From Verrucomicrobiota bacterium (GTDB lineage: Bacteria > Verrucomicrobiota > Verrucomicrobiia > Limisphaerales > DSYF01), in the NCBI GenBank assembly GCA_025457615.1, contig JALOTZ010000003.1, positions 17,614 to 81,613 of the forward strand: a DNA stretch of 64,000 bases, given 5' to 3'. Position numbers and translations under genes: made by a program. This document shows positions 47,098 through 64,000 of the stretch, in pieces. The notes under the pieces were generated by a model. It worked only from the letters and a program-made list of their open reading frames with translations, did not search any database and was not told the DNA's origin. Within the stretch, counting starts at the first letter, position 1; each line of letters opens with the position of its first letter.

Positions 47098-47940
47098 TCA
47101 GCCCCCCACGAGCCGCTGCCAGAGTTCGGCGAAGGCGGCCACCCCGCCGAACGCCAGCAAACCGAAGTAGCCAAGCGAGACCGCAAACGTCACCAACCCG
47201 CCCAGAAACACCACACCATCCTCCTCGAACGATCCGGCCGCCAGCAGCGCCGCCGCGGCGCCCGGAAAGAAGTTGCTCATCGGCACCGGCACCGGCAGCA
47301 GGAGCTTCAAACCGCACAGCGCGATCAACACGCCTCCCAGACATTGAAACACCGCGTGCCGGTAGAAGAACCGCAACCGCGGTTTGGAGATCCGCTCAAA
47401 CGCGCCGACCAGCCGGCTGCTGGCGCGCAGCACCTTGGGCAGCAGACGCGGCGGAAGCTCGCGGTTCAACAGGCCGCCGGGCAGATGCGGCTTCTGCCCC
47501 AGCGCAAGGCGGAACCCGATCAGGGCGAGCACCACCCCGACCACGGTCGAGTAGCCCGGCAGCGGAATCGGTGTCAGAAAAGGCAGGCAGAGCAGCACGA
47601 TCAACAACCGGTATCCGCGGCCGTGCAGCACGTCCACCACCTCGCCCAGCCGCACCGGGCCCTCTTGGAAATGTTCCGCCAGCGCCTTCAGATCCGCGGA
47701 CAGAACGCGGGTCGAGGCGGGTGCGCCTTTCGCATCCCGCTGCGCACTGTGCGCTTCTCCCCCGCTGGCTCCGCCGTTCGTCACGCTTGCTTCGCTCCCG
47801 GGCTGGTGACGGGGCGGAGGCCCCGAGGCGGCGCGCTGGGCAGGCGGACACCGAGAATTGGGAGTTGGGATTCGAGGAGGCACCATGGGCGCGCCAATCC
47901 CGACTCTGCTGCCACCCTGTCGTTCATGCGCAAACACCAC
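47098..47940 (-). CDS. exoD: ExoD-family membrane protein
   Basis: The core LGEVVDVLHGRGYRLLIVLLCLPFLTPIPLPGYSTVVG resembles the exopolysaccharide synthesis ExoD family. An N-terminal Pro/Gly-rich stretch of about 80 aa makes the true start uncertain. Confidence 0.7.
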   Translation of the reverse strand: MVFAHERQGGSRVGIGAPMVPPRIPTPNSRCPPAQRAASGPPPRHQPGSEASVTNGGASGGEAHSAQRDAKGAPASTRVLSADLKALAEHFQEGPVRLGEVVDVLHGRGYRLLIVLLCLPFLTPIPLPGYSTVVGVVLALIGFRLALGQKPHLPGGLLNRELPPRLLPKVLRASSRLVGAFERISKPRLRFFYRHAVFQCLGGVLIALCGLKLLLPVPVPMSNFFPGAAAALLAAGSFEEDGVVFLGGLVTFAVSLGYFGLLAFGGVAAFAELWQRLVGG

Positions 47941-48238: not shown

Positions 48239-50872
48239 CTATAAGTGGCTCGCCGAGGACACCCAATCATAGCCGCCGTCACCAAGCCCGACGGCCTTGA
48301 AATGGGCCTTGCCGCATTGGATTTTCTTCCGCTGAACTTCCGGGATCTTCAGCCAGTCGGTCGTGCCTTTGGTTTCGCGCACGAGATAGACTTTGTGCTG
48401 TCCGTCCGGCTCCTCGCGCACGATGGCCCAGTCTGGATTGTAGGTGCCCAGCGGCGTCTCCACCTTGAACCAGTCCGGCAGCTTGAAGAAGAGTTTGATG
48501 TCCGGCCGCGCGTCAAGGGCCTTGGCGAAGTCGTATTCCACCTTCGACTCGAACTCCACCACGTCATACAGCCCGTGCTGCACTTCGAGCAGGCGCGAAA
48601 CGTAGCTCTCCAGTTCCTCGCTTTCCAATCGATGCATTTCCCATTCGGCGTTGGCGATGCGCTCGTATTCGATGCCCTGCACCATGAGGTCGTGCAGGGT
48701 TTTCTGGACGGCGGCAACAGCGTGTTCCAGGAACTGCTGCGGATTACGCGTCACTTCGCCAAGCCGCTCGGACTTCCCCAAAATCTCCGCCAGCGTCGGA
48801 CGCGTGAGTTCCGTCTCGCGCTGAAGATGGCCAAGCAAATCCGGAATAGGCGCGGCGTATTCGGGTGCGCGGATGGTTTGGGCAGCGCGTTCCTCGCCGA
48901 ACACGCCTTGCTCCGCCGACAGGAAGACCTCGTGTTTCTCGCGACGGATGAACGGCGCCTTGATCTCCGGCATCCCGCGCAACTGCGCCGCCGACTGCGA
49001 CACCAAGTCCGCCGTGGCAAACTTCACCGCGTAGCGCGTCTTCTGCTTGATCTTGTCCCAGAGCGCCTGGAAGTCGGGATCGAGCAATCGCTGCTTCTTC
49101 AGCACGCCCTTGCGCCGCTCGCGCTTGTTCAGGATGCGGCCCGCGAAGTCCACGCCGCACTCCTTCTGCATCTCGTCCTGCAACCGCTGGGCAAACTCCT
49201 GGAAGCTCTCGCTCGCCACCACCGTGAGCTTGTTGATCAACGGATCGAAACAGCGCTCGCCGTTCTCGCGCACCGGCAGGCGCAGGCCGCGCCCGATGGT
49301 CTGCCGCCGCTCGCGTTCGGTGCTGATCTCGCGCAGCGTGCAAATCTGGAACACGTTCGGATTGTCCCAGCCCTCGCGCAGCGCCGAGTGGCTGAAGATG
49401 AAGCGCAGCGGCTCGGCCATCGAAAGCAGCCGCTCCTTGTCCCGCATGATGAGGTTGTACGCCTCATCATCCGCCTTGGTGGAACGGCCCTCGGCGCTGT
49501 CCTTGGGCTTGCCTTTGTCCACGGCGAAATAGCCGTTGTGGACTTTCCCGACGGGCAGCGGATTCAGTGGCGCGTACCGGGGCAACTGGGCAAGCTCCTG
49601 ATACAACTCCACAAACCACCGCCGGAATTTCCCGTCCGCCTCCGCGTAATGCGCCACGCGGTCCACGAAGAACAGCGACAGCACCTTCATCCTCTGCTCT
49701 CGCGGCAACTGCGCGATGCGCAACTCCTTCTCCAAATGCTCGCGAATCGTTTCCCGCACCTGAATCTTCAACACCTCGTCCGTCCGCCCGCCGTGCGTCA
49801 CGCCTGCCGCCAGATTCACGCCGTTCTTGAACTGGAGGTATTGGTTGCCCGCGTCAATCAGGTCCACCTCGTAGCCGCGATAGCTCTCGCGCCCGCCGGA
49901 GAGCGCGAACAAATCGCTCTCCTGCGTCACCGTCACGGTCTTGCGCTTCACGCCGCTGGCAGCCTCGACATCCACTTCCAGCTTGGCCGCGATGCGCGTC
50001 TTGGTGGCGGTGATGGCTTTGACCGCGATGTAGGGCCGGTTGAAATCGCCGCCGTCCACCACGGAATCCACCTCGATGCGTTTCACCAGCCGCAGGTCGT
50101 AGGCTTTCACCGGGTCGAGCCGATAGACCAGGTTGAAGTAATCCTTGTGCGTGGCCGAGTAGCGCAGCGTGCACAGCGGGTTCAGGCTTTCGATGGCCTT
50201 CGTGCGCAGTTCCGTCGCCAGGTTCTGCGGCTCGTCCACCACCACCACGGGCCGCGCGTGCTGGATGAACTCGATGGGCCGCCGCCCGTTCATCTGGTCC
50301 TTGGTGTTCTGGATGACGGTGCTGCTTTTGTCGAATGCCTGAATGTTCATCACCATCAACTGCATCTGGTTGCTGGCCGAGAACTGCCGCAGCTTCGACA
50401 CCTGGGCCGAGTCATAGACCCAGTAGTCCAGCGGCGCGTTCCCGTAGAGCGATTGGAAATGCTCCTTCGTCAACTCAATCGCGTTCAGCACGCCCTCGCG
50501 AATCGCCACGCTGGGCACGACGATGATGAACTTCTTCCAGCCGTAGCGCGCGTCCAGCTCGAACAAGGTGCGCAGATAAACGTAGGTCTTGCCCGTGCCC
50601 GTCTCCATCTCCACCGAGAAATTCATGCCCTGCAATTCCGTCACCGGCTCCAGCCCGTTCTCCGCCTGGACGCGACGGACGTTGCGCAACACCGCTTCCT
50701 CGCCCAGCGACAGCGAATTGCCCACACCCATTTCCGTGAGCAACTCGCCGCCCAGCGCGTCGCTCTGCCATTGCAGCGAGGCGCCCGTGAGCGGCTGGCC
50801 GGCGAACACCTCCACCACCGCGCGGAGGGCGTCCAACTGGAAATCCTGGTGGCTGTCGAATTTGATTTTCAT
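48239..50872 (-). CDS. res: Type III restriction enzyme, Res subunit
   Basis: 877 aa from MKIKFDSHQDFQLDAL. It has helicase motif I (TGTGKT), a DEAH-like VVVDEPQN, and a C-terminal PD-(D/E)xK-like nuclease motif (YNPDWAIV ... LVRETKG). It lies downstream of mod. Confidence 0.9.
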   Translation of the reverse strand: MKIKFDSHQDFQLDALRAVVEVFAGQPLTGASLQWQSDALGGELLTEMGVGNSLSLGEEAVLRNVRRVQAENGLEPVTELQGMNFSVEMETGTGKTYVYLRTLFELDARYGWKKFIIVVPSVAIREGVLNAIELTKEHFQSLYGNAPLDYWVYDSAQVSKLRQFSASNQMQLMVMNIQAFDKSSTVIQNTKDQMNGRRPIEFIQHARPVVVVDEPQNLATELRTKAIESLNPLCTLRYSATHKDYFNLVYRLDPVKAYDLRLVKRIEVDSVVDGGDFNRPYIAVKAITATKTRIAAKLEVDVEAASGVKRKTVTVTQESDLFALSGGRESYRGYEVDLIDAGNQYLQFKNGVNLAAGVTHGGRTDEVLKIQVRETIREHLEKELRIAQLPREQRMKVLSLFFVDRVAHYAEADGKFRRWFVELYQELAQLPRYAPLNPLPVGKVHNGYFAVDKGKPKDSAEGRSTKADDEAYNLIMRDKERLLSMAEPLRFIFSHSALREGWDNPNVFQICTLREISTERERRQTIGRGLRLPVRENGERCFDPLINKLTVVASESFQEFAQRLQDEMQKECGVDFAGRILNKRERRKGVLKKQRLLDPDFQALWDKIKQKTRYAVKFATADLVSQSAAQLRGMPEIKAPFIRREKHEVFLSAEQGVFGEERAAQTIRAPEYAAPIPDLLGHLQRETELTRPTLAEILGKSERLGEVTRNPQQFLEHAVAAVQKTLHDLMVQGIEYERIANAEWEMHRLESEELESYVSRLLEVQHGLYDVVEFESKVEYDFAKALDARPDIKLFFKLPDWFKVETPLGTYNPDWAIVREEPDGQHKVYLVRETKGTTDWLKIPEVQRKKIQCGKAHFKAVGLGDGGYDWVSSASHL

Positions 50873-50930
50873 GGCCCTGCGACCAAAGGGCAGGTCAAAC
50901 AAGCACACGCCTCGATAGCGGTCCGCGAGG

Positions 50931-51010
50931 TTTTGGACTGCGGCAGTCCTCTGCCGCTTTCGGATGATTCGCCACGCTCAAAAGCGCCAGAGGACTGGCG
51001 CACTCCAAGA
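50931..51010. repeat. palindromic repeat family A, copy 1 (mod-res intergenic)
   Basis: The arms are ttttggactgcggcagtcctctgccgctttc and aaagcgccagaggactggcgcactccaaga. Each arm carries its own 7-bp hairpin. A second copy is at 52804-52890. Confidence 0.7.
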
Positions 51011-51026
51011 CGCTGCCGCGCCATTT

Positions 51027-53192
51027 TCATGCCGTGTGGAATTCTATCCCGTGCGACTTCATCTCCAGCACCGTGTTGGCCTTGAGCTGGTCGTTGCCGG
51101 CGAAGGCGATGTCGAGGCAGATCACGCTTTTGGGCTGGCGCGCGACGAGGCCGCGCAACGTCTCCTGCGTGACGGGCCGCTCCAGGCAAATCGCCAGCGT
51201 GCCGTCGGCCACGTCGTAAAACGTCTGCCCGCCGATCTGGCCCGCGGTGACTTTGCTGGTGAGCGGGAGATTGCTCTTGAGGATCAATTCGTAAAGCAGC
51301 GCCTCGTCCGGGCGGTTTTCCACGACGTTGTGGGCCATGAGGGACAGTTGCTCGGCCAGGCCGGCGGCGTCTTTGGGTGCGGACGCGGCGTCCCACACCT
51401 TGAAATTGCTGCTGGCGAGTTTGAAGACTTTGAAACCCAGATCGGGATTTGACCGCAGAGAACGCAAAGAGCGCAGAGACTCCGCATCCTCCAAAGGCAG
51501 CTCGCTGGCCGATTTCTTTGCGCTCTCTGCGCTCTTTGCGGTTGATTCGGCTTCCAGCTTCTTGATCACGCGGCGGACGCGCTCTTTGGTGATGTCCGCG
51601 ATGGTGGGGAAATCCGGGCGCTCCGTCGGTTCGGGCAACTGGACGAGGATGAACCGGCGGTGGCCGCCGTCCTGCGCGTTCAACTCCAACACCGCCTGCG
51701 CCGTCGTGCCGCTGCCGGCGAAGAAGTCGAGGATGAGGTCGTCATCTCGAACCAGGAAATCAAACAACTGCTTCAGGAGAACCGAGGGTTTCGGGTTCGG
51801 GAATAGTTTCTGAACGTCGAATAGATCAAGCAGTTCATTCGCGCCAGTGCGGCTGTCCAAATGAATGACGCTGGATAGTTTTCCTTCGTAGCTCTCAAGG
51901 TATTCCTTGATTTGAATGATCTGCGTTTCGTCGTCGCCAAAGATGATCCGCTTGTCGGCAAGCAGGCTGTCCATCGTGGTTTTTGGAAAGCGGTATCCAT
52001 TCACCGGCGGCACGCATGGCTTCTTGATTGTGGGGTGGATTACGTCGTAAAAATACCCGCCGGGCTTCGGATTGTGAACCTTCCTGCTGCCAGTATAGAC
52101 ACCACGTTCATCAACGCGGTCGTAGTGGGTGATGCCATTGAGCACTTCGCGGTTTGATTTGATGAAAGCTCGGATTGCCTGCTGGATCGATTCGGGCGCA
52201 GCAGCGAATTGCGCTTTGAGTCTGCCGTATTCTCGCAGCAAGATTGTTTTGGCGTCGTCAGTTCTGTTCTTCCAAACCGGCTGATTGGCTTTGTCCCGGC
52301 AGTAGCAAAGAACGTATTCATGCTCGACTGCAACTTGGGTCGGGTTGTTGTCTGTCGCGCCTTTCCAAACGACGACTCCAACAAAATTCTCCTCCCCGAA
52401 AATCTCATTCATCACCGCGCGCAGGTTGTGAACTTCATGGTCGTCAATGCTCACGAAGATCACGCCGTCCTCGCGCAGGAGGTTCCGCGCCAGGAACAGC
52501 CGGGGATACATCATCGTCAGCCATTTGCTGTGGTAGCGCCCGTCGGTCTCGGCGTTGGTCGTGAGCCGGATGCCCTCGCCGCTGACCTGGCCGGAGAATT
52601 TCAGGTAGTCGGCCAGCCCTTCCTTGTAGTTGTCCGGGTAGATGAACTCGTTGCCGGTGTTGTAGGGCGGGTCGATGTAGATCATCTTCACGCGCCCGTG
52701 GTAGCCGCCTTGCAGGAGCTTGAGCACCTCCAGATTGTCGCCCTCGATGATGAGGTTTTCGGAGGTGTTGAGAGGCGAGAAGGTTTCGAAGGTCGCGCCA
52801 GCGTTTTGGACTGCGCCAGTCCCCTGGCGCTTTGGGGACGCTGCATCCGCTTCTGGTGAGAAAGCGGCAGAGGACTGCCGCACTCCAAAACCTTGCGGTG
52901 AGTTGGGGGCGCCGGCAAACGGCCGCGCCGGCCACGACTCCTCAGGACACGGCAGCAGCGTGCCGGGACTGGTGATCTGGATGGCGCGGAGGGCGTCGGA
53001 CTTGCCCGCCCACGAAAGCCCGTAGCGCTCCGGCGCATCCGTGGCGGCGTCGGCCAGCAGTTGCGCCAGCTTCTGGAGGTCGGCTTTCCCCTCGGTGAAG
53101 GCTTCGGGAAAGAGTGCGCGGAATTGCGCCAGCCGCTCCGCGTGAACGTCGCGCGAAGTCAGCGGCAGTTTGAGGTCGTCGCCCGTGGCCAT
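51027..53192 (-). CDS. mod: Type III DNA methyltransferase, Mod subunit (N6/N4 beta-class), intact ORF carrying two repeat-derived inserts
   Basis: 721 aa from MATGDDLKLPL. It has motif IV IYIDPPYN, then a central variable region, then motif I DFFAGSGTTAQAV. The N-terminal ERYGLSWAGK and IIEGDNLEVLKLL are typical of Type III Mod proteins. Confidence 0.9.
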   Translation of the reverse strand: MATGDDLKLPLTSRDVHAERLAQFRALFPEAFTEGKADLQKLAQLLADAATDAPERYGLSWAGKSDALRAIQITSPGTLLPCPEESWPARPFAGAPNSPQGFGVRQSSAAFSPEADAASPKRQGTGAVQNAGATFETFSPLNTSENLIIEGDNLEVLKLLQGGYHGRVKMIYIDPPYNTGNEFIYPDNYKEGLADYLKFSGQVSGEGIRLTTNAETDGRYHSKWLTMMYPRLFLARNLLREDGVIFVSIDDHEVHNLRAVMNEIFGEENFVGVVVWKGATDNNPTQVAVEHEYVLCYCRDKANQPVWKNRTDDAKTILLREYGRLKAQFAAAPESIQQAIRAFIKSNREVLNGITHYDRVDERGVYTGSRKVHNPKPGGYFYDVIHPTIKKPCVPPVNGYRFPKTTMDSLLADKRIIFGDDETQIIQIKEYLESYEGKLSSVIHLDSRTGANELLDLFDVQKLFPNPKPSVLLKQLFDFLVRDDDLILDFFAGSGTTAQAVLELNAQDGGHRRFILVQLPEPTERPDFPTIADITKERVRRVIKKLEAESTAKSAESAKKSASELPLEDAESLRSLRSLRSNPDLGFKVFKLASSNFKVWDAASAPKDAAGLAEQLSLMAHNVVENRPDEALLYELILKSNLPLTSKVTAGQIGGQTFYDVADGTLAICLERPVTQETLRGLVARQPKSVICLDIAFAGNDQLKANTVLEMKSHGIEFHTA
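51453..51541. repeat. palindromic repeat family B, copy inside the mod coding sequence
   Basis: The arms ccgcagagaacgcaaagagcgcagag and ctttgcgctctctgcgctctttgcgg are inverted. They are translated in frame as ...STAKSAESAKKSASELPLEDAESLRSLRSLRS.... This copy is related to 56362-56484 and 56574-56696. Confidence 0.6.
52804..52890. repeat. palindromic repeat family A, copy 2, inside the mod coding sequence
   Basis: The arms are ttttggactgcgccagtcccctggcgcttt and gaaagcggcagaggactgccgcactccaaaa. The copy is 87 nt (29 codons) and is translated as part of GFGVRQSSAAFSPEADAASPKRQGTGAVQNA, between the conserved PEESW and ENLIIEGDN blocks. Confidence 0.7.
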
Positions 53193-53234
53193 GATGTGGA
53201 AGGTGCCCGCGCCACTGCCAACCACGGGAAATCT

Positions 53235-53266
53235 CCAAAAGAAGGGGCGCGAACTCAACGCGCCCT
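53235..53266 (-). terminator. Rho-independent terminator-like hairpin in the mod 5' leader region
   Basis: On the minus strand, gggcgcg-ttgagtt-cgcgccc forms a 7-8 bp stem followed by TTCTTTTGG. It ends about 43 nt upstream of the mod ATG. Confidence 0.6.
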
Positions 53267-53528
53267 GCACCGAGGCACCGCGAAGCGCCTGTTACACGAG
53301 ACGCGCCAAGCCGCGCCCGATGGGGCGCTGGCTCGGTCGGTTCGTGTAACGGGCTTGGAAAATTCGCGGTTTTCGGTGCAGCCCGTAGCCGAAGCTACGC
53401 AAAGTCAAAATGTGTTGTTGCCGTTATGTCATTCGTCGTTGTCCGACGGGCGGAGGGTAAAGCAGACATGGCGCGGCGGGCAAAGGCTTTTCCGGCTTTC
53501 GTTCGCGGCGCGTGCAGCCCAGCCCGGT

Positions 53529-53603
53529 GTGGGCGGATGCAACATTGCGCCCGAGTATGACGGCGATGGCCTCACGACGGGATGGCGCGATGGTGGGGTG
53601 CAC
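53529..53603 (+). pseudogene. orphan 75-nt fragment homologous to the cardiolipin synthase gene
   Basis: VGGCNIAPEYDGDGLTTGWRDGGVH compares with cls residues 135-159, VGGCNIAPEYCGDGVTSGWRDGGVG (nt 55457-55531). By hand count about 20 of 25 aa and about 85 percent of nt are identical. Similarity is lost on both sides. Confidence 0.6.
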
Positions 53604-55054: not shown

Positions 55055-56305
55055 ATGGGCGACGTCAACCGCAGCGCCGTGCCGGGACCGGCGTCGGCGC
55101 CGGCTGCCGGTGCGGGCGCGCACCGCTTCACCTGGCACGGCACGGGGCAAAGCCTGCTGGAGGCCAAGCTGAAGGCCATCGCGCACGCGCGGTCGTCTGT
55201 CAGCATGGAAACCTTCACCTTCCGCGATTCGGACATCGGCCGGCAGTTTCGCGACGCCTTGACGGCCGCGGCGCGACGCGGGGTGCGCGTGCGGCTGCTG
55301 GTGGACGCGGCCGGCTCGTTCGCGTTGCCGCGAGACTATTTCGACGCGCTGACGGCAGCGGGCGGGGCGATGCGCTGGTTCAACGAACTGCGCCTGGCGT
55401 CGTTGTCCTTCCGGGACCACCGCAAATTGCTCATTGTGGACGACGCCGGGGCGTTTGTCGGCGGATGCAACATCGCGCCCGAGTATTGCGGTGACGGCGT
55501 CACGTCGGGCTGGCGCGATGGCGGTGTGGGGGTGCGGGGACCGGTGGCCGCCGAGCTGGCGGCGGAGTTCGAGCGGCAATGGGAGCGGGCGAGCGGGCAA
55601 CGCTGGCAGTTTCCACCCGGCGGCCTCAGCTTGCGGGTGCCGTTCGCCGCTGGACGCGAGGTCGAGGCATTGTTCATCAAACCCGGTTTCGGACGGAACG
55701 TGCTGCGCGAGGCATTGCGACGGGATCTGGCCTCGGCGAAGGACGTGGCGATCACCTCGGCGTATTTTCTCCCCTCGCACGGGCTGCGCCGCCAGCTCGG
55801 GCGGGCGGTGGCCCGCGGGACGCGGGTGCGGGTGCTGCTGGCAGGCCAAAGCGACGTGCCTCTGATGCAACTGGCCTCGCGGTCGCTCTACCGGCGCCTG
55901 CTCAACCGGGGCGTCGAACTCTGGGAATACCAGCCGCAGGTCCTGCATGCGAAGTTGATTGTGGTGGACGACATCTTGTTCGTCGGCTCGTCGAATCTCG
56001 ACCCGCGCAGCCTGCGGATCAACTTCGAGATCATGCTGCGGATCCAGGACGCCGCCTTGGCCGCGACGGCGCTCCGGCAGTTCGAGTCGGACCTTGCGGA
56101 GCGCGCCCTTCCCGTCACGCGTGCGATGGTGCGGCAGGACCGTTCGTGGTGGCGGCGGCTCCAACAGCGTCTGGCCTACTGGGTGTTTGCCCGGCTCGAC
56201 CCGGAACTGGCGGCGCTCAAGTTGCAGCTCTGGCAGAGGCGCAAGAACCGCCTCGTCCAACGCGTCCGCGGTGCGCGCCGCCCCCGGGGGGCGGGCCCCC
56301 GCTGA
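55055..56305 (+). CDS. phospholipase D-family cardiolipin synthase (ClsB-like, no TM segment)
   Basis: 416 aa with two HKD motifs (FRDHRKLLIVDD and LHAKLIVVDDILFVGSSNLD). Confidence 0.9.
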   Translation: MGDVNRSAVPGPASAPAAGAGAHRFTWHGTGQSLLEAKLKAIAHARSSVSMETFTFRDSDIGRQFRDALTAAARRGVRVRLLVDAAGSFALPRDYFDALTAAGGAMRWFNELRLASLSFRDHRKLLIVDDAGAFVGGCNIAPEYCGDGVTSGWRDGGVGVRGPVAAELAAEFERQWERASGQRWQFPPGGLSLRVPFAAGREVEALFIKPGFGRNVLREALRRDLASAKDVAITSAYFLPSHGLRRQLGRAVARGTRVRVLLAGQSDVPLMQLASRSLYRRLLNRGVELWEYQPQVLHAKLIVVDDILFVGSSNLDPRSLRINFEIMLRIQDAALAATALRQFESDLAERALPVTRAMVRQDRSWWRRLQQRLAYWVFARLDPELAALKLQLWQRRKNRLVQRVRGARRPRGAGPR

Positions 56306-56361
56306 TGGATACCCGGGCGCGGGTTCCCGCCCGGCAGGGCCGCGGCTCGGGGAAGACGCCA

Positions 56362-56484
56362 GACATGGGCTTCTTTCAACGCAAGGGCGCAAAGGCGCAG
56401 AGGCGCAAGCAGATGAAGGAGAAGCCCGCTGCCGCGAAGCCCCCGCCTTCTCTGGGCCTTCGCGTCTCTGCGTCCTGGCGTTGA
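56362..56484. repeat. palindromic repeat family B, tandem copy 1 (123 nt)
   Basis: The copy is gacatgggcttctttcaacgcaagggcgcaaaggcgcagaggcgcaag ... cttcgcgtctctgcgtcctggcgttga. It is about 93 percent identical to 56574-56696 and sits 212 nt upstream of it. Confidence 0.8.
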
Positions 56485-56573
56485 AACCCCGTTCTCGGGC
56501 GCATGAAGGTCAGGGTGGGCAACCGAGGATGCGCGACATCACCGGCGAACGCTTGGCTTTGGTGAGCTTGTCA

Positions 56574-56696
56574 GACATGGGCTTCGTTCAACGCAAGGGC
56601 GCAAGGGCGCAGAGGCGCAAGCAGATGAAAGAGAAGCCCGCTGCCGCGAAGCCCCCGCCCTCTCTGCGCCTTCGCGTCTCTGCGGCTTTGCGTTGA
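56574..56696. repeat. palindromic repeat family B, tandem copy 2 (123 nt)
   Basis: This is a direct repeat of 56362-56484. A further partial 3' end (ccctctctggctttgcgttcga) lies near 56908-56935. Confidence 0.8.
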
Positions 56697-56701
56697 GTCC
56701 C

Positions 56702-56872
56702 TCACATCTCCACCACCTCCACCGTGTCGTAAAGCGCCCCGGTCTCCTCCGCATCGCCGACGACGCTGAGCGCGATGGCAACAGTCTGCCACGGATCGCA
56801 AGCATCCTCACCCGAATGCCACCGGCAGATGACCGTGAACGGATTCAGTCCGGCCGGTTTGCTGTTGGCCAT
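56702..56872 (-). CDS. hypothetical small protein (56 aa)
   Basis: The ORF is MANSKPAGLNPFTVICRWHSGEDACDPWQTVAIALSVVGDAEETGALYDTVEVVEM. Third-position GC is high (about 80 percent by hand count), as in the real genes here. There is no obvious Shine-Dalgarno sequence and no recognised family. It is divergent from the HNH remnant. Confidence 0.3.
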   Translation of the reverse strand: MANSKPAGLNPFTVICRWHSGEDACDPWQTVAIALSVVGDAEETGALYDTVEVVEM

Positions 56873-56961
56873 AGTCCGGCAGAGGCACCTGGCCAGGTAC
56901 TGACGAGACCGCAAGCCCTCTCTGGCTTTGCGTTCGACACGACTGGTGGCAGTCTCCAGAC

Positions 56962-57425
56962 ATGGCAGCCGGGAAACGCTGGTCGCGTGACGAGTTACTC
57001 GTCGCGCTGAACCTCTATCACAAACTAACGTTCGGGCAGCTTCACGCCCGCCACCCTGCGATTGTCGCGCTCGCTGAAAAGCTCGGTCGCGGCTCGAACA
57101 GCGTGGCCATGAAACTCTGCAACTTCGCTTCGATTGATCCCGCTTTGAAACTACGAGGCATCAAAGGACTGGAAGGCGCAAGTGCTCTCGACCGCGAAGT
57201 CTGGACCGAGTTTCATGCGAATCTCAGCGAGGCAGTGCCAGTCAGTGAGGAAGCCCTCCGCAAGTTGTTTGGCACTGACGAGAGCAGCGAACTGGAGGTT
57301 CTGCCACGGGAGGGCATCCGTGTACGGAAGCGTCCACCAATCGGGCCGACTGAGACGGCGGCGACAGTGAAGCAGCGGCGTGGGCAGGAGTATTTCCGTG
57401 AGGCGGTGCTGAACAACTTCAGCCA
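56962..57425 (+). pseudogene. HNH_2-type putative restriction endonuclease, N-terminal remnant lacking the nuclease domain
   Basis: RWSRDELLVALNLYHKLTFGQLHARHPAIVALAEKLGRGSNSVAMKLCNFASIDP ... RRGQEYFREAVLNNF matches the N-terminal two thirds of this family (from memory). The expected CxxG ... ASHIxPW HNH block is missing. The open frame continues only as antisense to the channel gene. Confidence 0.55.
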
Positions 57426-57579
57426 CCCAACACGCGTTGCCAGATCGCGCCGATGGCTGCTGCGCCACCCAACGCCCGCACTCGCAGGTCCGCCGACAAT
57501 GCCCGCGGCGACACCGGGGCCGGTGCGGGCCTGGCAACGTCGCTGGTCCGATGCGGTAAGCTGGTCTGGTCACATTCAG

Positions 57580-58440
57580 TCATGGCTCGGGCACATGGGA
57601 CGGTTTGTGGCGCAGGCGTCGTCGTGTACGGGTTGCCTGGTCCTTGAGGGACTCGATTTGCTGTTCGAGCCGGAGCAACTCATCCTCGATCGTGGCCGCG
57701 CCGGTTTCGTTGACATGCGACTGGCGGTCGCGCTCCGCGATTTCGGCGTGCATCTCGGACATGCTGTTCATGATGATGCCGATGAACAGGTTCAGCATGA
57801 TCATCGTGCCGAGCAGGATGAAGCTGATGAAGTAGATCGGCGTCGCCACGGGCGCGCTAGATTGGGCGGCGCGGTAGATGTCACTCCAATTGTCCAGCGT
57901 GATCACCTGGAACAGGGAAAACAGCGCCGCCTTCAGGGAGCCAAAATGACCGGCATCCGCCTCGCGGAACAACTGAACGCCGGCCACGCCGTAGATGTAG
58001 AACATCAGCGCCAGCAGCAGGCCCACATACCCCATCGCGCCCAGGCTCTTGAGCAACGCACCGACCAGGAGTTGGAGCCGGGGCAGCGCCGAAACCAACC
58101 GCAGTAATCGCAGCGCCCGCGCCAAGCGCAGCACGGCCGCAAACTGGGCATTCATCGGCAAGCAACACAGCGCGACGATGGTGAAGTCGAACACGTTCCA
58201 GCCATCGCGGAAATAGTGCCACGGCTGGCGTCCATGCGCGGCCATCTTGAGCGCAAGCTCGACGATAAAGACGGCGAGGATCGCGAGGTCCAATGCCTCC
58301 AGCAACATGCCGTACCGGGCGACGAGGGCAGGACTCGTCTCCAGTCCGGTCAAAACTCCGGCCAGGAGAATGACGGCCAGGATGGTGGTCTCGAACCATC
58401 GGGCGTGGACCAGGGCATTCAGTTTCGTATTCATGAACAA
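57580..58440 (-). CDS. single-domain voltage-gated cation channel (NaChBac/BacNav-like)
   Basis: 286 aa with six TM segments. The S4 segment has Arg at every third position (VLRLARALRLLRLV). The pore is LFQVITLDNWSDIY, and there is a C-terminal coiled coil (IEDELLRLEQQIESLKDQ). Confidence 0.9.
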   Translation of the reverse strand: MFMNTKLNALVHARWFETTILAVILLAGVLTGLETSPALVARYGMLLEALDLAILAVFIVELALKMAAHGRQPWHYFRDGWNVFDFTIVALCCLPMNAQFAAVLRLARALRLLRLVSALPRLQLLVGALLKSLGAMGYVGLLLALMFYIYGVAGVQLFREADAGHFGSLKAALFSLFQVITLDNWSDIYRAAQSSAPVATPIYFISFILLGTMIMLNLFIGIIMNSMSEMHAEIAERDRQSHVNETGAATIEDELLRLEQQIESLKDQATRTRRRLRHKPSHVPEP

Positions 58441-58447
58441 TTACGAC

Positions 58448-58681
58448 TCATCCGAGACTGACTTCCCGCCGGCGCAAGAGGTCGCGTTCCTTGCACGGGT
58501 GCGCCTGCATGCGCAAGAGAACACCGTCGAGAAAGCGCACGGCGGACAGGATGTGCGGACCCTTGCGGACCGCGCGTTTTCGGGGAGGCGGACCAAGGAG
58601 CGGGTCGATGGCCTGGCGGCTGGTCAACGGGGTGACCGGACGCGACTGGGCGCGGCTTGGGATCGAGGTGGAACGTTTCAT
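58448..58681 (-). CDS. hypothetical basic 77-aa protein translationally coupled to the ATPase
   Basis: Its ATG overlaps the ATPase TGA (ATGA at 58678-58681), and its stop lies 7 nt before the channel ATG. Third-position GC is about 80 percent by hand count. No recognised domain. Confidence 0.35.
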   Translation of the reverse strand: MKRSTSIPSRAQSRPVTPLTSRQAIDPLLGPPPRKRAVRKGPHILSAVRFLDGVLLRMQAHPCKERDLLRRREVSLG

Positions 58682-61467
58682 ACGCGGTGTTTCGTTTGGG
58701 CGGAAAGCCATTTGTGAGTCTCGACAACCCCCAACACCACCAAGCCTGCCGCCAGGATGCGCAGCCATTCCTCCCCGCCAATCGGGGCGGTCTGGAAAAT
58801 GGAGTTCAAGAAAGGCAGGTAGGTGATGGCGGCTTGGAGGAGCAGGACACCCGCGATGCCCAACCAGAGCCAGCCGTTGCGGAACAGGCCGATGGAGAGG
58901 ATGGAATGGCGCAGCGAGCGGCAGTTGACCAGATACAGCGCCTGGATCACGGCCACGGTATTGAGCGCGACCGTGCGGGCGGCGTCCACGCCGGCGCCCC
59001 GCCGCAGTTCCCATTGGAACAGGCCGAAGGCGGCGATGAGGATGAGCACACCCGCCAGCACCACCTGTGCGAGCATCCGACCGGTGAGGATCGGCGCCCC
59101 GGGCGCGCGCGGCGGGCGCTGCATGAGGTCCCGCTCTTTGGGTTCGAGCGCGAGAAACAATCCCAGCACGCCGCCGGTGGTCATGTTGATCCAAAGCACC
59201 TGGAGGGGCAGGATGGGCAGCGTCGCGCCCGCCAGCGCCGCCGCCAGGATCACCAAACCCTGGCCGAGGTTGCTCGGCAGCGCCCAGGTGATGATCTTGG
59301 TCAGGTTGTCGAACACGTTCCGGCCTTCCTCCACGGCGGCCTCGATCGAAGCGAAGTTGTCGTCCGTCAGCACCATGTCCGATGCTTCCTTGGCGACCTC
59401 CGTGCCGGTGATGCCCATGGCCACGCCGATGTCGGCCTGTTTGATCGCCGGGCCGTCGTTGACGCCGTCGCCGGTCATGGCCACGACGTGGCCGCGAGCT
59501 TGCAGCGCCTCGACCAGGCGCAGCTTCTGCTCCGGTGTGACGCGGGCGAAGACGGAGACGTTGCCCGCGGCTTCAATCAACTGTTGGTCGGAAAGCGCGG
59601 CCAGCTCCTTGCCCGTCAGCGCCAGGGGGTGGGGCGATGCGGTGGCTTCCTGCACCAGCCCCAGTTGCCGCCCGATCGCCACCGCCGTCCCCGCGTGATC
59701 GCCCGTGATCATCTTGACCTGGATGCCGGCGCGGTGACACGCCGCCACGGCCGCGACCGCTTCCGGCCGCGGCGGATCGATCATCCCCTGCAGGCCGAGC
59801 AAGGTGAACTGGTGCGGCAGGCTGTGGGCGCTGATGCGCTGGGTGTCCACGGGCAGCTCCGCGCGGGCGAAGGCCAGCACGCGCAGGCCGCTGGCAGCAA
59901 GATCGCCGACGTGCTTCTGAATGCGCTCGCGGTCGAGCTTGATCGGTTGCCGGCGTGTGTTGAAGGCGACATTGCACCGATCGAGCACCACTTCCACGGC
60001 GCCTTTCAGATAAACCAGCTTGCGGCCCGTGTTCGAGTCATCGTGCAGCGTGGCCATGAACTGGTGTTGCGACTCGAACGGAATGGCGTCCACCCGTGGC
60101 AGGCGCGTCTTCACCGCATCGCCCTCCAAACCGGCTTTGCGCGCGGCGACAATCAACGCCACCTCGGTCGGGTCGCCTTGGGCCTCCCAGCGGCCTTCCT
60201 TCTGGACCAGCGAGCTGTCGTTGCAGACCAGTCCGGCGAGCAGGCACTCGGACAGGCCGGGCGCATCGCCAAGGTTGAGCCGCTGCCCGTCCAGCGTGAG
60301 GTCGCCGCTCGGCTCGTAGCCATTGCCTCCCACTTCATAGACTTCGTCGCCCACCACGACCTGCCGCACGGTCATCTGGTTTTGCGTGAGCGTGCCGGTC
60401 TTGTCCGTGCAGATCACCGTCGTGCTGCCGAGCGTTTCCACGGCGGGGAGCTTGCGGATGATGGCGCGGCGCCGGGCCATGCGCGAAACGCCGATGGCCA
60501 GCGTCACGGTCACGGCCACGGGCAATCCCTCCGGGATCGCGCCCACCGCCAGCGCGATGGCCGACGAGAGAATCTCGTCCAGGCTCTCGCCGCGCCACAG
60601 GCCCAGGGCCACGACCAGCCCGGCCAGGCCCAGGATCAGCAGCAGCAGCTTGTGTCCGAAGGCCTTGATCTTGCGCGTGAGCGGGGTTTCCAGGCTTTGG
60701 GCCGCCGAGATCATTTCCGAGATGCGCCCGATCTCCGTGTGATCGCCGGTGCCGGTGACGATGCCCCGTCCCTGGCCGTAGGTGACCAGCGTCGAGGCGT
60801 AGGCCATGTTGGCACGGTCGGCGAGCGACGTTTCCGGCGCCAATCGCAAGTCGGCGCTCTTTTCAACCGAGGTGGATTCGCCGGTGAGCGCGGCTTCGGC
60901 GATTTGCAGGTCGCGCGTGGCCACGAGACGCAGGTCAGCGGGCACTTTATCGCCCGAGGCGAGCAGCACGACGTCCCCGGGAGTCAGTTCGGGCGAGGGA
61001 ATCCGCAGGGTCTGGCCACCACGAATGACCGTGGTTTCCATCACGAGGCTCTGCGAAAGCGCCTCGATGGCGCGCTCGGCCTTGGCTTCTTGCAGGTAAC
61101 CGATGACCGCGTTGATCAGCACCACGCTCAGGATGACCGCCGCATCCACGAAGCCCCCCATCGCCAGTTTCACCCCGCCCGCCGCCAGCAGGATGTAGAT
61201 GAGCGGATTGTGGAACTGGAGCAGAAAGCGCATCCAGAAGCTGCGGCCCTGCTTGGGCGTGAGTCGGTTCGGGCCAAAGCGCTCGCGGCGATGTTTCACC
61301 TCGAAGAGGTCAAGACCCGTTTCGAGATTCGTCTCCAGCAATCGCCCCACCTCGCTTGTGGGCAGGTGATGCCAGTGGCGCCCGAGCAAATTCTGCAGGG
61401 GGTCAGACGGTGGTGGTTTCATGACGGTCATGCCTCGCTTCAGTGTCTCGATACTGCCAGCAACCAT
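58678..61467 (-). CDS. cation-transporting P-type ATPase (P2-like)
   Basis: Up to 929 aa, with alternative starts at 61431 and 61422. It has TGES, PEGLP in TM4, the DKTGTLT phosphorylation site, and the MITGD and TGDGVNDGPA motifs. Confidence 0.95.
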   Translation of the reverse strand: MVAGSIETLKRGMTVMKPPPSDPLQNLLGRHWHHLPTSEVGRLLETNLETGLDLFEVKHRRERFGPNRLTPKQGRSFWMRFLLQFHNPLIYILLAAGGVKLAMGGFVDAAVILSVVLINAVIGYLQEAKAERAIEALSQSLVMETTVIRGGQTLRIPSPELTPGDVVLLASGDKVPADLRLVATRDLQIAEAALTGESTSVEKSADLRLAPETSLADRANMAYASTLVTYGQGRGIVTGTGDHTEIGRISEMISAAQSLETPLTRKIKAFGHKLLLLILGLAGLVVALGLWRGESLDEILSSAIALAVGAIPEGLPVAVTVTLAIGVSRMARRRAIIRKLPAVETLGSTTVICTDKTGTLTQNQMTVRQVVVGDEVYEVGGNGYEPSGDLTLDGQRLNLGDAPGLSECLLAGLVCNDSSLVQKEGRWEAQGDPTEVALIVAARKAGLEGDAVKTRLPRVDAIPFESQHQFMATLHDDSNTGRKLVYLKGAVEVVLDRCNVAFNTRRQPIKLDRERIQKHVGDLAASGLRVLAFARAELPVDTQRISAHSLPHQFTLLGLQGMIDPPRPEAVAAVAACHRAGIQVKMITGDHAGTAVAIGRQLGLVQEATASPHPLALTGKELAALSDQQLIEAAGNVSVFARVTPEQKLRLVEALQARGHVVAMTGDGVNDGPAIKQADIGVAMGITGTEVAKEASDMVLTDDNFASIEAAVEEGRNVFDNLTKIITWALPSNLGQGLVILAAALAGATLPILPLQVLWINMTTGGVLGLFLALEPKERDLMQRPPRAPGAPILTGRMLAQVVLAGVLILIAAFGLFQWELRRGAGVDAARTVALNTVAVIQALYLVNCRSLRHSILSIGLFRNGWLWLGIAGVLLLQAAITYLPFLNSIFQTAPIGGEEWLRILAAGLVVLGVVETHKWLSAQTKHRV

Positions 61468-63194
61468 AGGATCACACCTATCAGAAGCAGCAACGCGGCC
61501 CCGGCGACCGGCCAGGCGCGCAGCGTATTCTCAATCCGCGCCAGACGCCCGCCCACAGCCGCCAGGCGGGCCGACCAGCGCAGGCTCTCCGCGGGGGAGG
61601 CGGCATCGTGACCGTTGCCGTGATCTGGGGCAGGCCGGACCGGCGGCCGGAGCGCAACGCGCGTCACGAGTTTCTCGAAGAGGACCCCGAGATCGCCCGC
61701 GGGCAGCCAGCGGGTCAACTCACCAGAGAACCATCGCCGCAGCCACGCGGCCAGGGCCGCCAGCGCGCCCCCCACGAGCAGCGGCCACAGGGCGTCCCAG
61801 AGTCTCTGCGGCGACAGTTTCTTGGGCAGCACTTCCAGGGCGCCGGGCAAGAGCCAGACGCCGGCCAGCATCGCCACCACCAATCCGAGCCAAGGCAGCC
61901 ACAAGCCGCGCGCGGAGGACTCGGTGGCGTGCCCGGGCCGCGGCCAGGTCAACCACAGGTAGCGCGCCATCTTGAGCATCGTGCCCGCGGCAGCCAGCGG
62001 CAGCAGAATGCCCAGGACCGTGGCCCAGCCTGCCGGCAGAAAAGCGATATTGGCCTTGAGTGCGGTCTTGGCCAGCGCACCGCTGGTGAACGGCGCGCCC
62101 GCCAACGCCAGCGCCGGCAGCAGCAGACCCACCCCCACCACGAGGCGCTGCCATCGGGTGTGCGCCGCATGCGCCGGGCCGATGCCCAGAAAGAGCGATC
62201 CCTTCGCCAGTGCGTGATGCGTCGCATAGATCAGCACGGCCGCCTGGATCTCCAGCCACTCCTCAGGCCGCAGCGCACCGATGCCCAGGCCGGTCATGAT
62301 GATGCCCATCTGGCTGATGCTCGAATAGGCCAGCACGGCTTTCGGATTCTTCTGCGCCACGCCGACGAATGTTCCCAGAAAAGCCGCGCCCAGTCCTGCG
62401 CTGATCAGAGTGAAACCGCACACCGGCATCGTCGCTTCGCCCAGCGGTAGAAAGCGAATCCAGCCCAGCAACCCCGCCTTGATCATCGCCCCGCTCAACA
62501 CCGCACTCGCCGGCACGGGCGCGGCTGGATGGGCCAGCGGCAGCCAGAAGTGCAGGCTCAACGCGCCCGCCTTGATGCCAAACCCCGCCAGCAACAGCAG
62601 CAGCGCCGGCAGGCTGAACACGCCGCGATGCAGTTCGGCAATCTGGGTCGTGCCCCCGGCCACGGTGAGGAACACAAATCCAGACAGGATCAACACCTCG
62701 CCCACCATCGCCAGCGCCAGGTAGATTCGACCGGCGCGCGTGGCTTCGGCGTCGCCACGATGAAAGACCAACCCCGCCGAGGCCAGGCCCATCAGGGCGA
62801 ACGCGGTATAGAAGGTTGGAATGTCGCCCGCCAGGATCAGGCCGAAGTTGCCGGTCATCGCCAGCAGGAAGAACAGACGGAAACGGAGGGGATTCGTGTC
62901 CTTGACCAGATAGCCACGCGCATACCAGCCGGATGTCAGGTAAAGGACGCTGGTGAACGCAAGGAACACGCGCCCGACCAGGTCCAATTCCAGAACCGCG
63001 TGTTGGACCGCCCATGGCAGACTCAGCCTCGCGCCGGTTGGACCGGCGAGGGCGAGCACCAGCGCCGGCAGCGCCGCCAGCGGCGTGGCGCGTATCACCG
63101 CGTCGCGCCAAGGCCGGACCGCCAACAGCAGAACGGTCAGCATGGGCGCGGTGACGGCGGCGAACAGCAGCAGCGATGACAGGTTTGGGGTCAA
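61440..63194 (-). CDS. proton-conducting antiporter-like subunit (NuoL/MnhA/MnhD family) with a C-terminal extension
   Basis: It is multi-TM and has the family motif HFWLPLAHPAAPVPASAVLSGAMIKAG. The proposed TTG start at 63194 overlaps the upstream TGA (TTGA). The longest ORF reaches 63329, so the start is uncertain. Confidence 0.75.
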   Translation of the reverse strand: MTPNLSSLLLFAAVTAPMLTVLLLAVRPWRDAVIRATPLAALPALVLALAGPTGARLSLPWAVQHAVLELDLVGRVFLAFTSVLYLTSGWYARGYLVKDTNPLRFRLFFLLAMTGNFGLILAGDIPTFYTAFALMGLASAGLVFHRGDAEATRAGRIYLALAMVGEVLILSGFVFLTVAGGTTQIAELHRGVFSLPALLLLLAGFGIKAGALSLHFWLPLAHPAAPVPASAVLSGAMIKAGLLGWIRFLPLGEATMPVCGFTLISAGLGAAFLGTFVGVAQKNPKAVLAYSSISQMGIIMTGLGIGALRPEEWLEIQAAVLIYATHHALAKGSLFLGIGPAHAAHTRWQRLVVGVGLLLPALALAGAPFTSGALAKTALKANIAFLPAGWATVLGILLPLAAAGTMLKMARYLWLTWPRPGHATESSARGLWLPWLGLVVAMLAGVWLLPGALEVLPKKLSPQRLWDALWPLLVGGALAALAAWLRRWFSGELTRWLPAGDLGVLFEKLVTRVALRPPVRPAPDHGNGHDAASPAESLRWSARLAAVGGRLARIENTLRAWPVAGAALLLLIGVILWLLAVSRH

Positions 63195-64000
63195 GGTCCG
63201 TATTCCCTCGTGGCGATCAGTTTCACCCACGCCAGCGGACTGAACGGGGATTCCGCAAACACGCCCGCCCAAATCACCAGCGCCGCGGTGACCAATGGCG
63301 CGGTGAGCAACATCCAGTGGGTTTCCCACCTGCCGAAATCATGCTCGTGCGGCCACGCCTTCGGGCTCAATAACCAGGCGCGATAAAGGATGGGCAGGAA
63401 ATACGCCGCGTTGAGCAGGCTGCTGACGGCGAGCACCACCGCGACCCATTCGTCGCCCGCGGTGATCGCGCCCTTCTTCAAATACCACTTGCTGATGTAG
63501 CCCGCGAGCGGCGGCACGCCGATCATGCCCAGGGCCGCGACCGTGAAGGCGGCCGTGGTCAGTGGCATGCGTCGGCCCACGCCGTTCATCTCGCTCACGC
63601 GATGCGTGCCGAGCGTCTCGGCATAGTTCCCTGCGCAGAAGAAGAGCGTGATCTTCATGATGCCCTGATGCACGAGATGCACCAGCCCGCCGATGGTGGC
63701 CACCGGCCCCAGGATGGCCGCGCCCAGCACGATGTAAGAAACCTGGCTCACCGTGGAGTAGGCGAGGCGCTTCTTGAGTTCGTCCTGAAAGAGCGCGCGC
63801 ACCGAGCCATGGACGATCGTGACGCCCGCCGCGAGGGCCAGCGGTGGCAGCACGCCCAGCGTGGCGGCCGTCTCCACGCCATACACGTCATACACGATGC
63901 GCACGATGCCGAATGCGCCGGCCTTCACCACGGCCACCGCGTGCAGCAACGCGCTGACCGGCGCGGGGGCGACCATGGCCTTGGGCAGCCAGCCGTGCAG
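63191..64000 (-). CDS. Mrp/NuoN-type antiporter-like subunit (5' end outside window)
   Basis: The frame is open to the window edge (LHGWLPKAMVAPAPVSALLHAVAVVKAG), which is the classic H-x-WLP-x-AM-x-x-P-x-PVSALLHA motif of NuoL/M/N and MnhA/D proteins. Confidence 0.8.
   Translation of the reverse strand: MHGWLPKAMVAPAPVSALLHAVAVVKAGAFGIVRIVYDVYGVETAATLGVLPPLALAAGVTIVHGSVRALFQDELKKRLAYSTVSQVSYIVLGAAILGPVATIGGLVHLVHQGIMKITLFFCAGNYAETLGTHRVSEMNGVGRRMPLTTAAFTVAALGMIGVPPLAGYISKWYLKKGAITAGDEWVAVVLAVSSLLNAAYFLPILYRAWLLSPKAWPHEHDFGRWETHWMLLTAPLVTAALVIWAGVFAESPFSPLAWVKLIATREYGP

Follow-up and report, generated by a model that had tools for sequence, protein, structure and literature searches.

Why should subunits of a secondary cation antiporter, a P-type ATPase and a voltage-gated cation channel lie almost without spacing on one strand of a verrucomicrobial genome, and do their products handle cations together? 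We addressed this question at positions 57,580 to 64,000 of the window, by which we mean the whole 64,000-nt stretch of DNA analysed (Verrucomicrobiota bacterium, GCA_025457615.1, contig JALOTZ010000003.1, positions 17,614 to 81,613 of the forward strand). Our analysis suggests that these genes, from a Verrucomicrobiota genome of subdivision 3 or Limisphaerales-like type, are the tail of a super-operon, modular and partly decaying, that would serve cation homeostasis, probably of Ca2+ and Na+. We give this reading a probability of about 0.6. What points to such a system is entirely gene neighbourhood, and the system combines known kinds of system.

Gene layout and junctions of the operon

An earlier note on the window had described five near-abutting minus-strand genes: an MnhD-like subunit running off the window, a NuoL/MnhA-like subunit, a P-type ATPase, a 77-codon open reading frame (ORF) and a BacNav-like channel. 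The ORF list and the junction sequences bear out five co-oriented ORFs, separated by 4-nt overlaps or by gaps of 8 and 13 nt. The features are as follows (minus strand throughout; aa, amino acids).

63191..64000, continuing beyond the window edge, minus: mrpD2, 3' part, 269 codons (PF00361 Proton_antipo_M, E=1.9e-37)
61440..63194, minus: mrpD3, 584 aa, TTG start (PF00361, E=2.7e-34)
58678..61431, minus: predicted CtpF-like P2A-type P-type ATPase, 917 aa (five Pfam ATPase domains)
58448..58681, minus: in-frame relic of a pyruvate kinase (PK) gene, 77 codons (NF011314 C-terminus, E=7.7e-6)
57580..58434, minus: predicted BacNav-superfamily voltage-gated cation channel, 284 aa (PF00520, E=8.6e-50)
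57419..57583, minus: exoD relic, 54 codons, internally deleted (tblastn and blastn)

The TGA stop of D2 (63193-63191) overlaps the TTG start of D3 (63194-63192) as TTGA. This start, already proposed in the earlier note, is supported because the related locus L006 has ATG at the equivalent codon. The D3 stop (TGA, 61442-61440) and the ATPase ATG at 61431 are 8 nt apart, within the 10 nt or so predicted before. An alternative ATG at 61467 would give 929 aa and a 28-nt overlap with D3; the ATG at 61431 is favoured because close homologues are 917 aa long. The ATPase stop (TGA, 58680-58678) overlaps the ATG of the 77-codon ORF (58681-58679) as ATGA. Past the stop of that ORF (TGA, 58450-58448) there is a TTG 7 nt on, at 58440, and an ATG 13 nt on, at 58434. 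The channel had been taken to start after 7 nt, and a TTG is indeed found there, but the ATG at 58434 is more likely the start, because its 284-aa product fits all homologue N-termini and the database record, while the TTG-start product has no database record. The channel stop (57582-57580) in turn overlaps the ATG (57583-57581) of a 54-codon exoD relic as ATGA, a junction absent from the earlier note.

The spacing of these junctions implies that the genes are probably co-transcribed and translationally coupled, in line with the single transcription unit that had been suggested. A consensus scan found no sigma-70-like promoter in 56300-64000, although the consensus may not fit Verrucomicrobiota promoters. 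Terminator-like sites in the same interval numbered five against 5.3 expected by chance; two were inside the ATPase and D3 genes and none at the junctions.

The same arrangement was found in two assemblies, a JGI metagenome contig (L001) and the NCBI metagenome-assembled genome GCA_025491015.1 (L002, L169). L001 and L169, as two assemblies of the same organism as the window, were used to extend the locus past position 64000. The whole unit covers about 13.5 kb, with 15 ORFs on one strand, and the window ORFs form its tail, or 3' half. Its order in L001 and L169 is usp, CaCA antiporter, mrpE-F-G-MbhD-B-C-D1-D2-D3, ATPase, PK relic, channel, exoD relic, and most of its junctions there are 4-nt overlaps. 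At gathering thresholds, Rfam matched no known RNA, riboswitches included, either in the window or in six loci that carry the operon.

The tight layout has a wider gap between mnhB and mnhC. Repeats of the GAAGTCCGAA type form a palindromic element there, about 170 nt long (L001 1590-1760; L084 1395-1562). The gap between the two genes in L001 is 156 nt, and the palindrome has a predicted fold energy of -82.9 kcal/mol. It was found in two genomes, at 74% identity; in L003 and L086, mnhB and mnhC overlap and leave no room for it. It could be a processing or attenuation site within the operon.

A complete Mrp antiporter upstream

The identity of the antiporter genes turned on the sequence beyond position 64000, since an ordinary complex I or hydrogenase cluster would have undone the ion-cycling reading of the earlier note. 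The extension revealed a complete Mrp set. Subunits identified in L169 and L001 were MnhE (PF01899), MnhF (NF009244, E=4.9e-7), MnhG (PF03334), MbhD/DUF4040, MnhB (PF04039), MnhC (PF00420) and three Proton_antipo_M (PF00361) proteins, D1 (543 aa), D2 (497 aa) and D3 (584 aa). The MbhD/DUF4040 gene is the counterpart of the MrpA C-terminal domain, so that a full MrpA-G equivalent set is encoded together. No Nuo, NiFe or hydrogenase catalytic genes were found in the cluster of L001, L169, L086 or L087, and the neighbours of the cluster are Usp and CaCA upstream and the ATPase downstream. We assign the cluster to the Mrp (CPA3) systems because it lacks Nuo and hydrogenase catalytic genes; a complex I or hydrogenase cluster is ruled out by a complete Mrp set without redox genes.

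The complete D2 gene encodes 497 aa (L001 3751-5244; L169 8511-10004), and its best NCBIfam matches are 'monovalent cation/H+ antiporter subunit D', in agreement with the MnhD-like label given to its 3' part. D3 is a subunit like the MrpA N-terminal part, NuoL and HyfB, with a C-terminal extension of about 200 aa; its best NCBIfam match is HyfB. Its AlphaFold model (predicted local distance difference test score, pLDDT, 80.1; predicted template modelling score, pTM, 0.80) found MrpA as best Foldseek matches (7qru_A, 6z16_A), followed by NdhF/NuoL, which bears out the NuoL/MnhA-like identity first given to this gene. Segment 495-561 of the model has pLDDT below 50 over most of its length. Nine residues, D124, E166, K208, K239, H326, H327, K331, K376 and K380, are invariant in 32 homologues. 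The CaCA gene encodes a Na_Ca_ex protein that scores 251.9 bits with TIGR00367, above the cut-off of 179.65.

The order E-F-G-(A')-B-C-D-D-A resembles Mbh-type and Group 3 Mrp orders. Group 3 systems have irregular gene orders, such as mrpFGBCDDAE in Microbacterium sp. TS-1 and mrpCD1D2EFGAB in Aphanothece (PMC5703873). They have all subunit types in common with the window operon, and no redox module. Here, the MrpA C-terminal domain is a separate MbhD/DUF4040 gene, and there are two MrpD and one MrpA-N/NuoL-like protein. Unlike Group 3 Mrp, the operon has a P-type ATPase gene joined at its 3' side and a CaCA gene at its 5' side, both in the same orientation; no description of such genes joined to an Mrp cluster was found in the literature searched.

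The P-type ATPase

Pfam found Cation_ATPase_N, E1-E2_ATPase, Cation_ATPase, Hydrolase and Cation_ATPase_C in the third protein, and the core motifs CTDKTGTLT, IPEGLP and TGDGVNDGPA are present. The P-type ATPase identity thus holds, and Pfam and NCBIfam place the protein among P2-type enzymes. The closest solved structures are SPCA1 and LMCA1. The protein stayed under both equivalog cut-offs, with 712.9 bits against 798.3 for TIGR01522 and 618.5 against 703.4 for TIGR01116. In M6 it has WINMTTGG where SPCA1 has WINIIMDG, so that SERCA Asp800 is replaced by Gly, and in M5 it has NLGQGL, with Gln for SERCA Glu771. The M6 Asp was in none of the 30 motif variants recovered from 106 of the 120 homologues listed. 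The ATPase therefore fails two tests for a canonical Ca2+-ATPase equivalog, the M6 Asp and the NCBIfam cut-off.

From its sequence, the protein is best described as a CtpF-like P2A ATPase in which a small residue replaces Asp800. This label is given because the M6 Asp is absent as in CtpF and because homologues are named 'cation-transporting ATPase F', a JGI name that several close homologues carry. In CtpF of Mycobacterium tuberculosis, which is reported to mediate Ca2+ efflux, Ala takes the place of Asp800 (PMC6879984). Compared on the published description, both are P2A ATPases with a PEGL motif and a lost Asp800 equivalent (Ala in CtpF, Gly in the window). Unlike CtpF, the Verrucomicrobiota subclade has Gln in place of Glu771 as well, and the gene lies within an Mrp operon. 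A Usp gene often adjoins the CtpF-like ATPase gene.

A long PK gene of the PRK14725 type (about 647 aa) was repeatedly found 3' of the CtpF-like ATPase gene, with stop and start overlapping (L090, L091/L100, L003, L006). Such a PK might be a local source of ATP for the pump. The strand opposite the ATPase gene has a 984-codon open frame (58657-61611, plus strand), which we read as a shadow ORF typical of high-GC DNA and not as a gene.

The voltage-gated channel

The last intact protein of the unit has a single Ion_trans domain (PF00520). Its S4 segment, LRLARALRLLRL, contains four Arg, one at every third position, and its filter is TLDNWSD, in which T179, L180, D181, N182 and W183 are invariant in 18 homologues. 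Single-domain relatives in the PDB are NavCt (4bgn), NaChBac (6vwx), NavMs and NavAb. On the domain, the S4 Arg pattern and the TLxxW-form P-loop, the protein is a predicted member of the BacNav superfamily, as the earlier note had concluded.

The filter differs from the published ones compared here. TLESW is the canonical, Na+-selective BacNav filter, TLDDWSD that of the engineered, Ca2+-selective CavAb, and TLDSWGS that of the non-selective NsvBa, while native CavMr (TLEGWVD) is Ca2+-selective through Gly at position 4 and NavPp (TLEDWTD) conducts Na+ and is blocked by Ca2+ (PMC7041947). The channel has neither the Na+-type TLESW nor the CavMr-type Gly at position 4, where it has Asn, and its TLDNWSD is one position apart from engineered CavAb. 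The pair Asp3 and Asn4 is an uncharacterised combination in the literature searched.

By filter and architecture, the channel resembles the AnclNav group (CavMr, NavPp), which also has a single six-transmembrane-segment voltage-gated channel with an acidic, non-TLESW filter (PMC7041947). The exact CavMr and NavPp filters occur in Verrucomicrobiota and Planctomycetota relatives of our survey. In the AnclNav group, filter position 4 is decisive, with Gly giving Ca2+ selectivity and Asp giving Na+ permeability with Ca2+ block (PMC7041947). Prediction of selectivity from the filter alone was dropped, as acidic AnclNav filters may be either Ca2+-selective or Na+-permeable and Ca2+-blocked.

Conservation of the linkage

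Two surveys were made. The channel-anchored survey took the best 80 channel loci, one genome per GTDB species and nearly all Verrucomicrobiota; 70 of these had enough upstream sequence to score the context. The ATPase-anchored survey took the best 80 ATPase loci from metagenome loci and look-ups, dereplicated at 97% nucleotide identity, and scored a channel as linked only if it was at most 3.6 kb downstream of the ATPase. Filters and contexts were compared on a combined set of 92 channels from all loci.

Upstream context of the channel, in species out of 70:
TerC directly upstream: 38
TerC, CNNM, channel: 14
TerC at short distance: 9
Mrp, PK or ATPase context (L006, L084): 2
Other or no upstream context: 7

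In the combined set, all TerC-linked channels with a recognisable filter have TLD[N/D]W, and no TerC adjoins channels with a CavMr-type (TLEGWVD) or NavPp-type (TLEDWTD) filter. TerC proteins act in the export of metal (Mn2+) and in metalation (PMC10550928). The TerC-channel synteny seems to be unreported. A TerC-channel pair was also observed in L003 (19384-20858), 10 kb from the Mrp-ATPase-PK-channel locus, with a channel 69% identical to that of the window; its presence on the same contig indicates that the operon-linked channel is an extra paralogue in that genome.

From the side of the ATPase, Mrp was directly upstream in 12 of 18 loci at 70% identity or more to the window and in 0 of 40 below 70%. 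A channel lay downstream within the limit in 5 of 19 loci at 70% or more, against 1 of 37 below. Two further cases at 70% or more are L107, whose contig was too short to score, and L090, where the channel is immediately upstream. The channel thus follows the ATPase in about a quarter to a third of these closer relatives. The configurations found were as follows.

ATPase, PK relic, channel: window; L107
Truncated ATPase, PK, channel: L003
ATPase relic, PK, channel: L006
ATPase, CNNM, channel: L084; L092/L109
ATPase, channel, no spacer gene: L101
Channel, ATPase, PK: L090
ATPase, Usp, Usp, distant channel: L112

ATPase-linked channels fall at three or more separate positions in a neighbour-joining channel tree. 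The gene set recurs in two distant lineages. One of them, L170, carries the ATPase and Usp together with the same Mrp type, FtsH, a CPA2 antiporter and CaCA. In the other, L171, the same Mrp type occurs with CaCA and, within 5 kb, a TerC-channel pair (filter TLEGWAM); its D3 homologue is annotated by NCBI as Propionivibrio sp. The co-occurrence in relatives that the earlier note had proposed to look for is therefore found, but it is partial and restricted to a clade. No prior description of a linkage of Mrp, a CtpF-type pump and a voltage-gated channel was found in the literature searched, in agreement with that note.

Gene relics and decay of the locus

The C-terminal half of the 77-codon ORF matches the end of PRK14725 PK (NF011314, E=7.7e-6). 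In L003, a 647-aa PK, which scores 730.9 bits against a cut-off of 642, lies between the ATPase and a channel 85% identical to that of the window. By BLASTP against this PK, relic residues 1-29 correspond to PK 1-34, 22-39 to 150-167 and 38-77 to 608-647, and blastn gave three collinear blocks of 79-82% identity. The match to three PK segments indicates that 570 codons were lost in frame (77 of about 647 are left). The ORF is thus an in-frame relic of a PRK14725-type PK gene. Its ATGA overlap with the ATPase stop, reported earlier, stands, but its status as a gene does not.

PK was lost independently in L107, where a 30-codon relic has ATGA overlaps at both ends; the two relic regions share no DNA similarity. 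The gene 3' of the channel has decayed as well. Residues 1-34 of ExoD match 57583-57482 at 76% identity (tblastn). In a blastn comparison with L003, the 5' end of exoD directly abuts sequence that in L003 lies some 520 nt away, where its exoD region ends; exoD is intact 3' of the channel in L003, L004 and L006. We had considered that exoD was split by a 9.7-kb insertion (57482-57583 plus 47479-47724), and rejected it: the two parts share no DNA similarity, and the copy beside the channel is an internal-deletion relic.

Other parts of the cluster are missing elsewhere. Nearly the entire ATPase is lost in L006, and the L003 ATPase is split and without residues 730-892. D3 was not detected by tblastn in L003, and only a fragment of it is left in L084 and L099; in L084, fragments of TerC and D3 are kept between Mrp and the ATPase. 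Where genes are retained, the ratio of nonsynonymous to synonymous substitution rates (dN/dS) is 0.20-0.22 for D3, 0.15-0.22 for the ATPase and 0.18-0.28 for the channel, which indicates purifying selection (0.15-0.28 overall).

We read the cluster as modular, with Mrp and the ATPase as its core and the channel, with PK or CNNM, added more than once. Large deletions would have removed parts of it and left relic ORFs in frame; being in frame, these probably keep ribosomes coupled through to the channel gene.

Possible function and alternative explanations

If the genes act together, three extrusion systems would be made along with one depolarisation-gated entry path, as a pump-and-leak set for cytoplasmic cations. 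Mrp would expel Na+ at the expense of the proton-motive force, CaCA would use the Na+ gradient, with Na+ re-entry driving Ca2+ expulsion, and the CtpF-like pump would expel Ca2+ (or Na+) with ATP, while the channel would admit cations on depolarisation. We favour Ca2+ or another divalent cation as the ion handled, with Na+ as the coupling ion, because of the CaCA gene, the reported Ca2+ efflux by CtpF and the TLD[N/D]W channel subfamily, which is otherwise found behind TerC. Some Mrp systems transport Ca2+ (PMC5703873).

Several observations weigh against the super-operon reading or its Ca2+ side. TerC, with or without CNNM, is the dominant partner of the channel, upstream of it in 61 of 70 species. 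The linkage is patchy, as there are close ATPase relatives without Mrp (e.g. L089, L097) and most lack a downstream channel. PK or the ATPase was lost at every one of the four closest loci of the window's channel clade. Just one of the three SERCA acidic site residues checked is kept in the pump (Glu309; Glu771 is Gln and Asp800 Gly). The channel has Asn at the position that decides selectivity in AnclNav. Finally, the palindrome gap between mnhB and mnhC could split the transcript. The losses at the four closest loci also show that the products do not depend on each other, which goes against the self-contained module envisaged in the earlier note.

A first alternative is a Na+ cycle for pH and Na+ homeostasis, in which a Na+ channel would feed Mrp and the ATPase would be a Na+ pump, i.e., the Bacillus arrangement as one operon. 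Mrp systems are mostly Na+/H+ antiporters (PMC5703873). In alkaliphilic Bacillus, cation/proton antiporters receive their Na+ through Nav channels (NaVBP/NsvBa and Mrp; PMC4225499), and voltage-gated entry feeding such antiporters is common to both cases. The pump without two SERCA acidic Ca2+ ligands would fit as well, as would the greater Na+ sensitivity of an M. tuberculosis ctpF deletion mutant (PMC6879984) and Na+ conduction by NavPp, an AnclNav channel with an acidic filter (PMC7041947). However, the filter is TLDNWSD and not TLESW, the operon holds a CaCA Ca2+/Na+ antiporter above the NCBIfam cut-off, CtpF is reported as a Ca2+ efflux pump (PMC6879984), and elsewhere the TLD[N/D]W subfamily goes with TerC and CNNM, both of them divalent-metal families (PMC10550928). 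Compared with the Bacillus system (PMC4225499), the window genes are also physically linked, with a primary pump and CaCA added and a filter not of the Na+ type, and they belong to a Verrucomicrobiota metagenome-assembled genome. We therefore consider a pure Na+ cycle unlikely.

A more far-reaching form of the Ca2+ interpretation is that the operon, and with it the broader recurring set of genes for CaCA, Mrp, the CtpF-like pump, TerC, CNNM and the TLD[N/D]W channel, would encode a bacterial Ca2+-excitability toolkit. A depolarisation-gated, Ca2+-permeable channel would make cytoplasmic Ca2+ transients, which the ATP-driven pump and the Na+/Ca2+ exchanger would end while Mrp maintains the Na+ gradient. 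If true, prokaryotes would have, in a single operon, a counterpart to the set of channel, SERCA/PMCA and NCX found in eukaryotes. We regard it as doubtful.

The linkage may also be an accident of rearrangement, in which a TerC-CNNM-channel cassette recombined beside an Mrp-ATPase operon, the products do not cooperate and the region is decaying. The prevalence of TerC upstream of the channel would be expected in that case, as would the TerC and D3 fragments of L084 and the PK, exoD, ATPase and D3 relics in different genomes. The flanks of the operon also speak for it: just downstream there is a restriction-modification system along with palindromic repeats and an HNH-like ORF that is truncated, and upstream a group II intron reverse-transcriptase fragment. 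An accident does not readily explain why the ATPase and the channel adjoin in several configurations and at three or more places in the channel tree, why the same gene families are co-localised in distant lineages (L170, L171), why the retained genes are under purifying selection, or why the relic ORFs are in frame with start-stop overlaps kept in two independent deletions. This explanation appears quite improbable to us.

It is very hard to believe that the product of the 77-codon ORF is a small protein with a function, such as a regulatory subunit of either pump or channel: the ORF is open, starts in an ATGA overlap, has the best pattern of G+C at third and second codon positions (GC3/GC2) among six frames (GC3 0.77, against 0.82-0.87 in the adjoining genes) and is called as a gene in two assemblies, but it is pieced together from three PK segments and lacks 570 codons, which rules it out as a genuine small gene, has no Pfam family and no PF00224 match (the PK barrel domain of about 600 aa is absent), and is replaced by a different, unrelated 30-codon relic at the same place in its sister L107 and by an intact 647-aa PK there in L003 and L006, while its dN/dS (0.23-0.63, on only 29-40 codons) is uninformative.

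Outside alkaliphilic Bacillus, little is known about what bacterial voltage-gated cation channels do physiologically. The gene neighbourhoods bear on this, as one channel subfamily now has clear partners that recur: TerC, alone or with CNNM, in most of the Verrucomicrobiota examined, and, in one clade, an Mrp antiporter together with a CtpF-type pump and a CaCA exchanger. These partner genes give testable hypotheses on the ions that the channel carries and the efflux systems that balance it, and define a gene set to co-express. The fusion of Mrp and ATPase operons, of which no description was found in the literature searched, places secondary and primary cation extrusion in one unit, and the in-frame relic ORFs can be seen as a natural experiment, if a small one, on translational coupling.

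Neighbouring features

Downstream of the exoD relic, an ORF on the plus strand (56962 to about 57500) has an N-terminal part that seems to resemble an HNH-type restriction endonuclease; it gave no Pfam match and is apparently truncated where it meets the relic. Between this ORF and a PLD gene (55055-56305), two copies of a 130-nt element were found (56360-56489 and 56572-56701), 92% identical and 212 nt apart, each with 34-nt inverted arms. They look like miniature inverted-repeat transposable elements or elements of the repetitive extragenic palindromic type. A 24-codon fragment (53529-53600, plus strand) that adjoins a CNNM gene is 87.5% identical to residues 135-158 of the PLD gene, and is a small duplicated gene piece.

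Further on, the minus strand at about 48239-53270 encodes an N6_N4 DNA methyltransferase (732 aa) and a ResIII/RE_endonuc protein (877 aa), a pair that looks like type III-like restriction-modification. It is followed by a second, intact gene of the exoD family (47479 to about 48160, minus strand). At the other end of the unit, a truncated group II intron reverse transcriptase/maturase of 213 aa (L169 1237-1878; TIGR04416, E=4e-53, under the cut-off) is located directly upstream of the usp gene of the operon.

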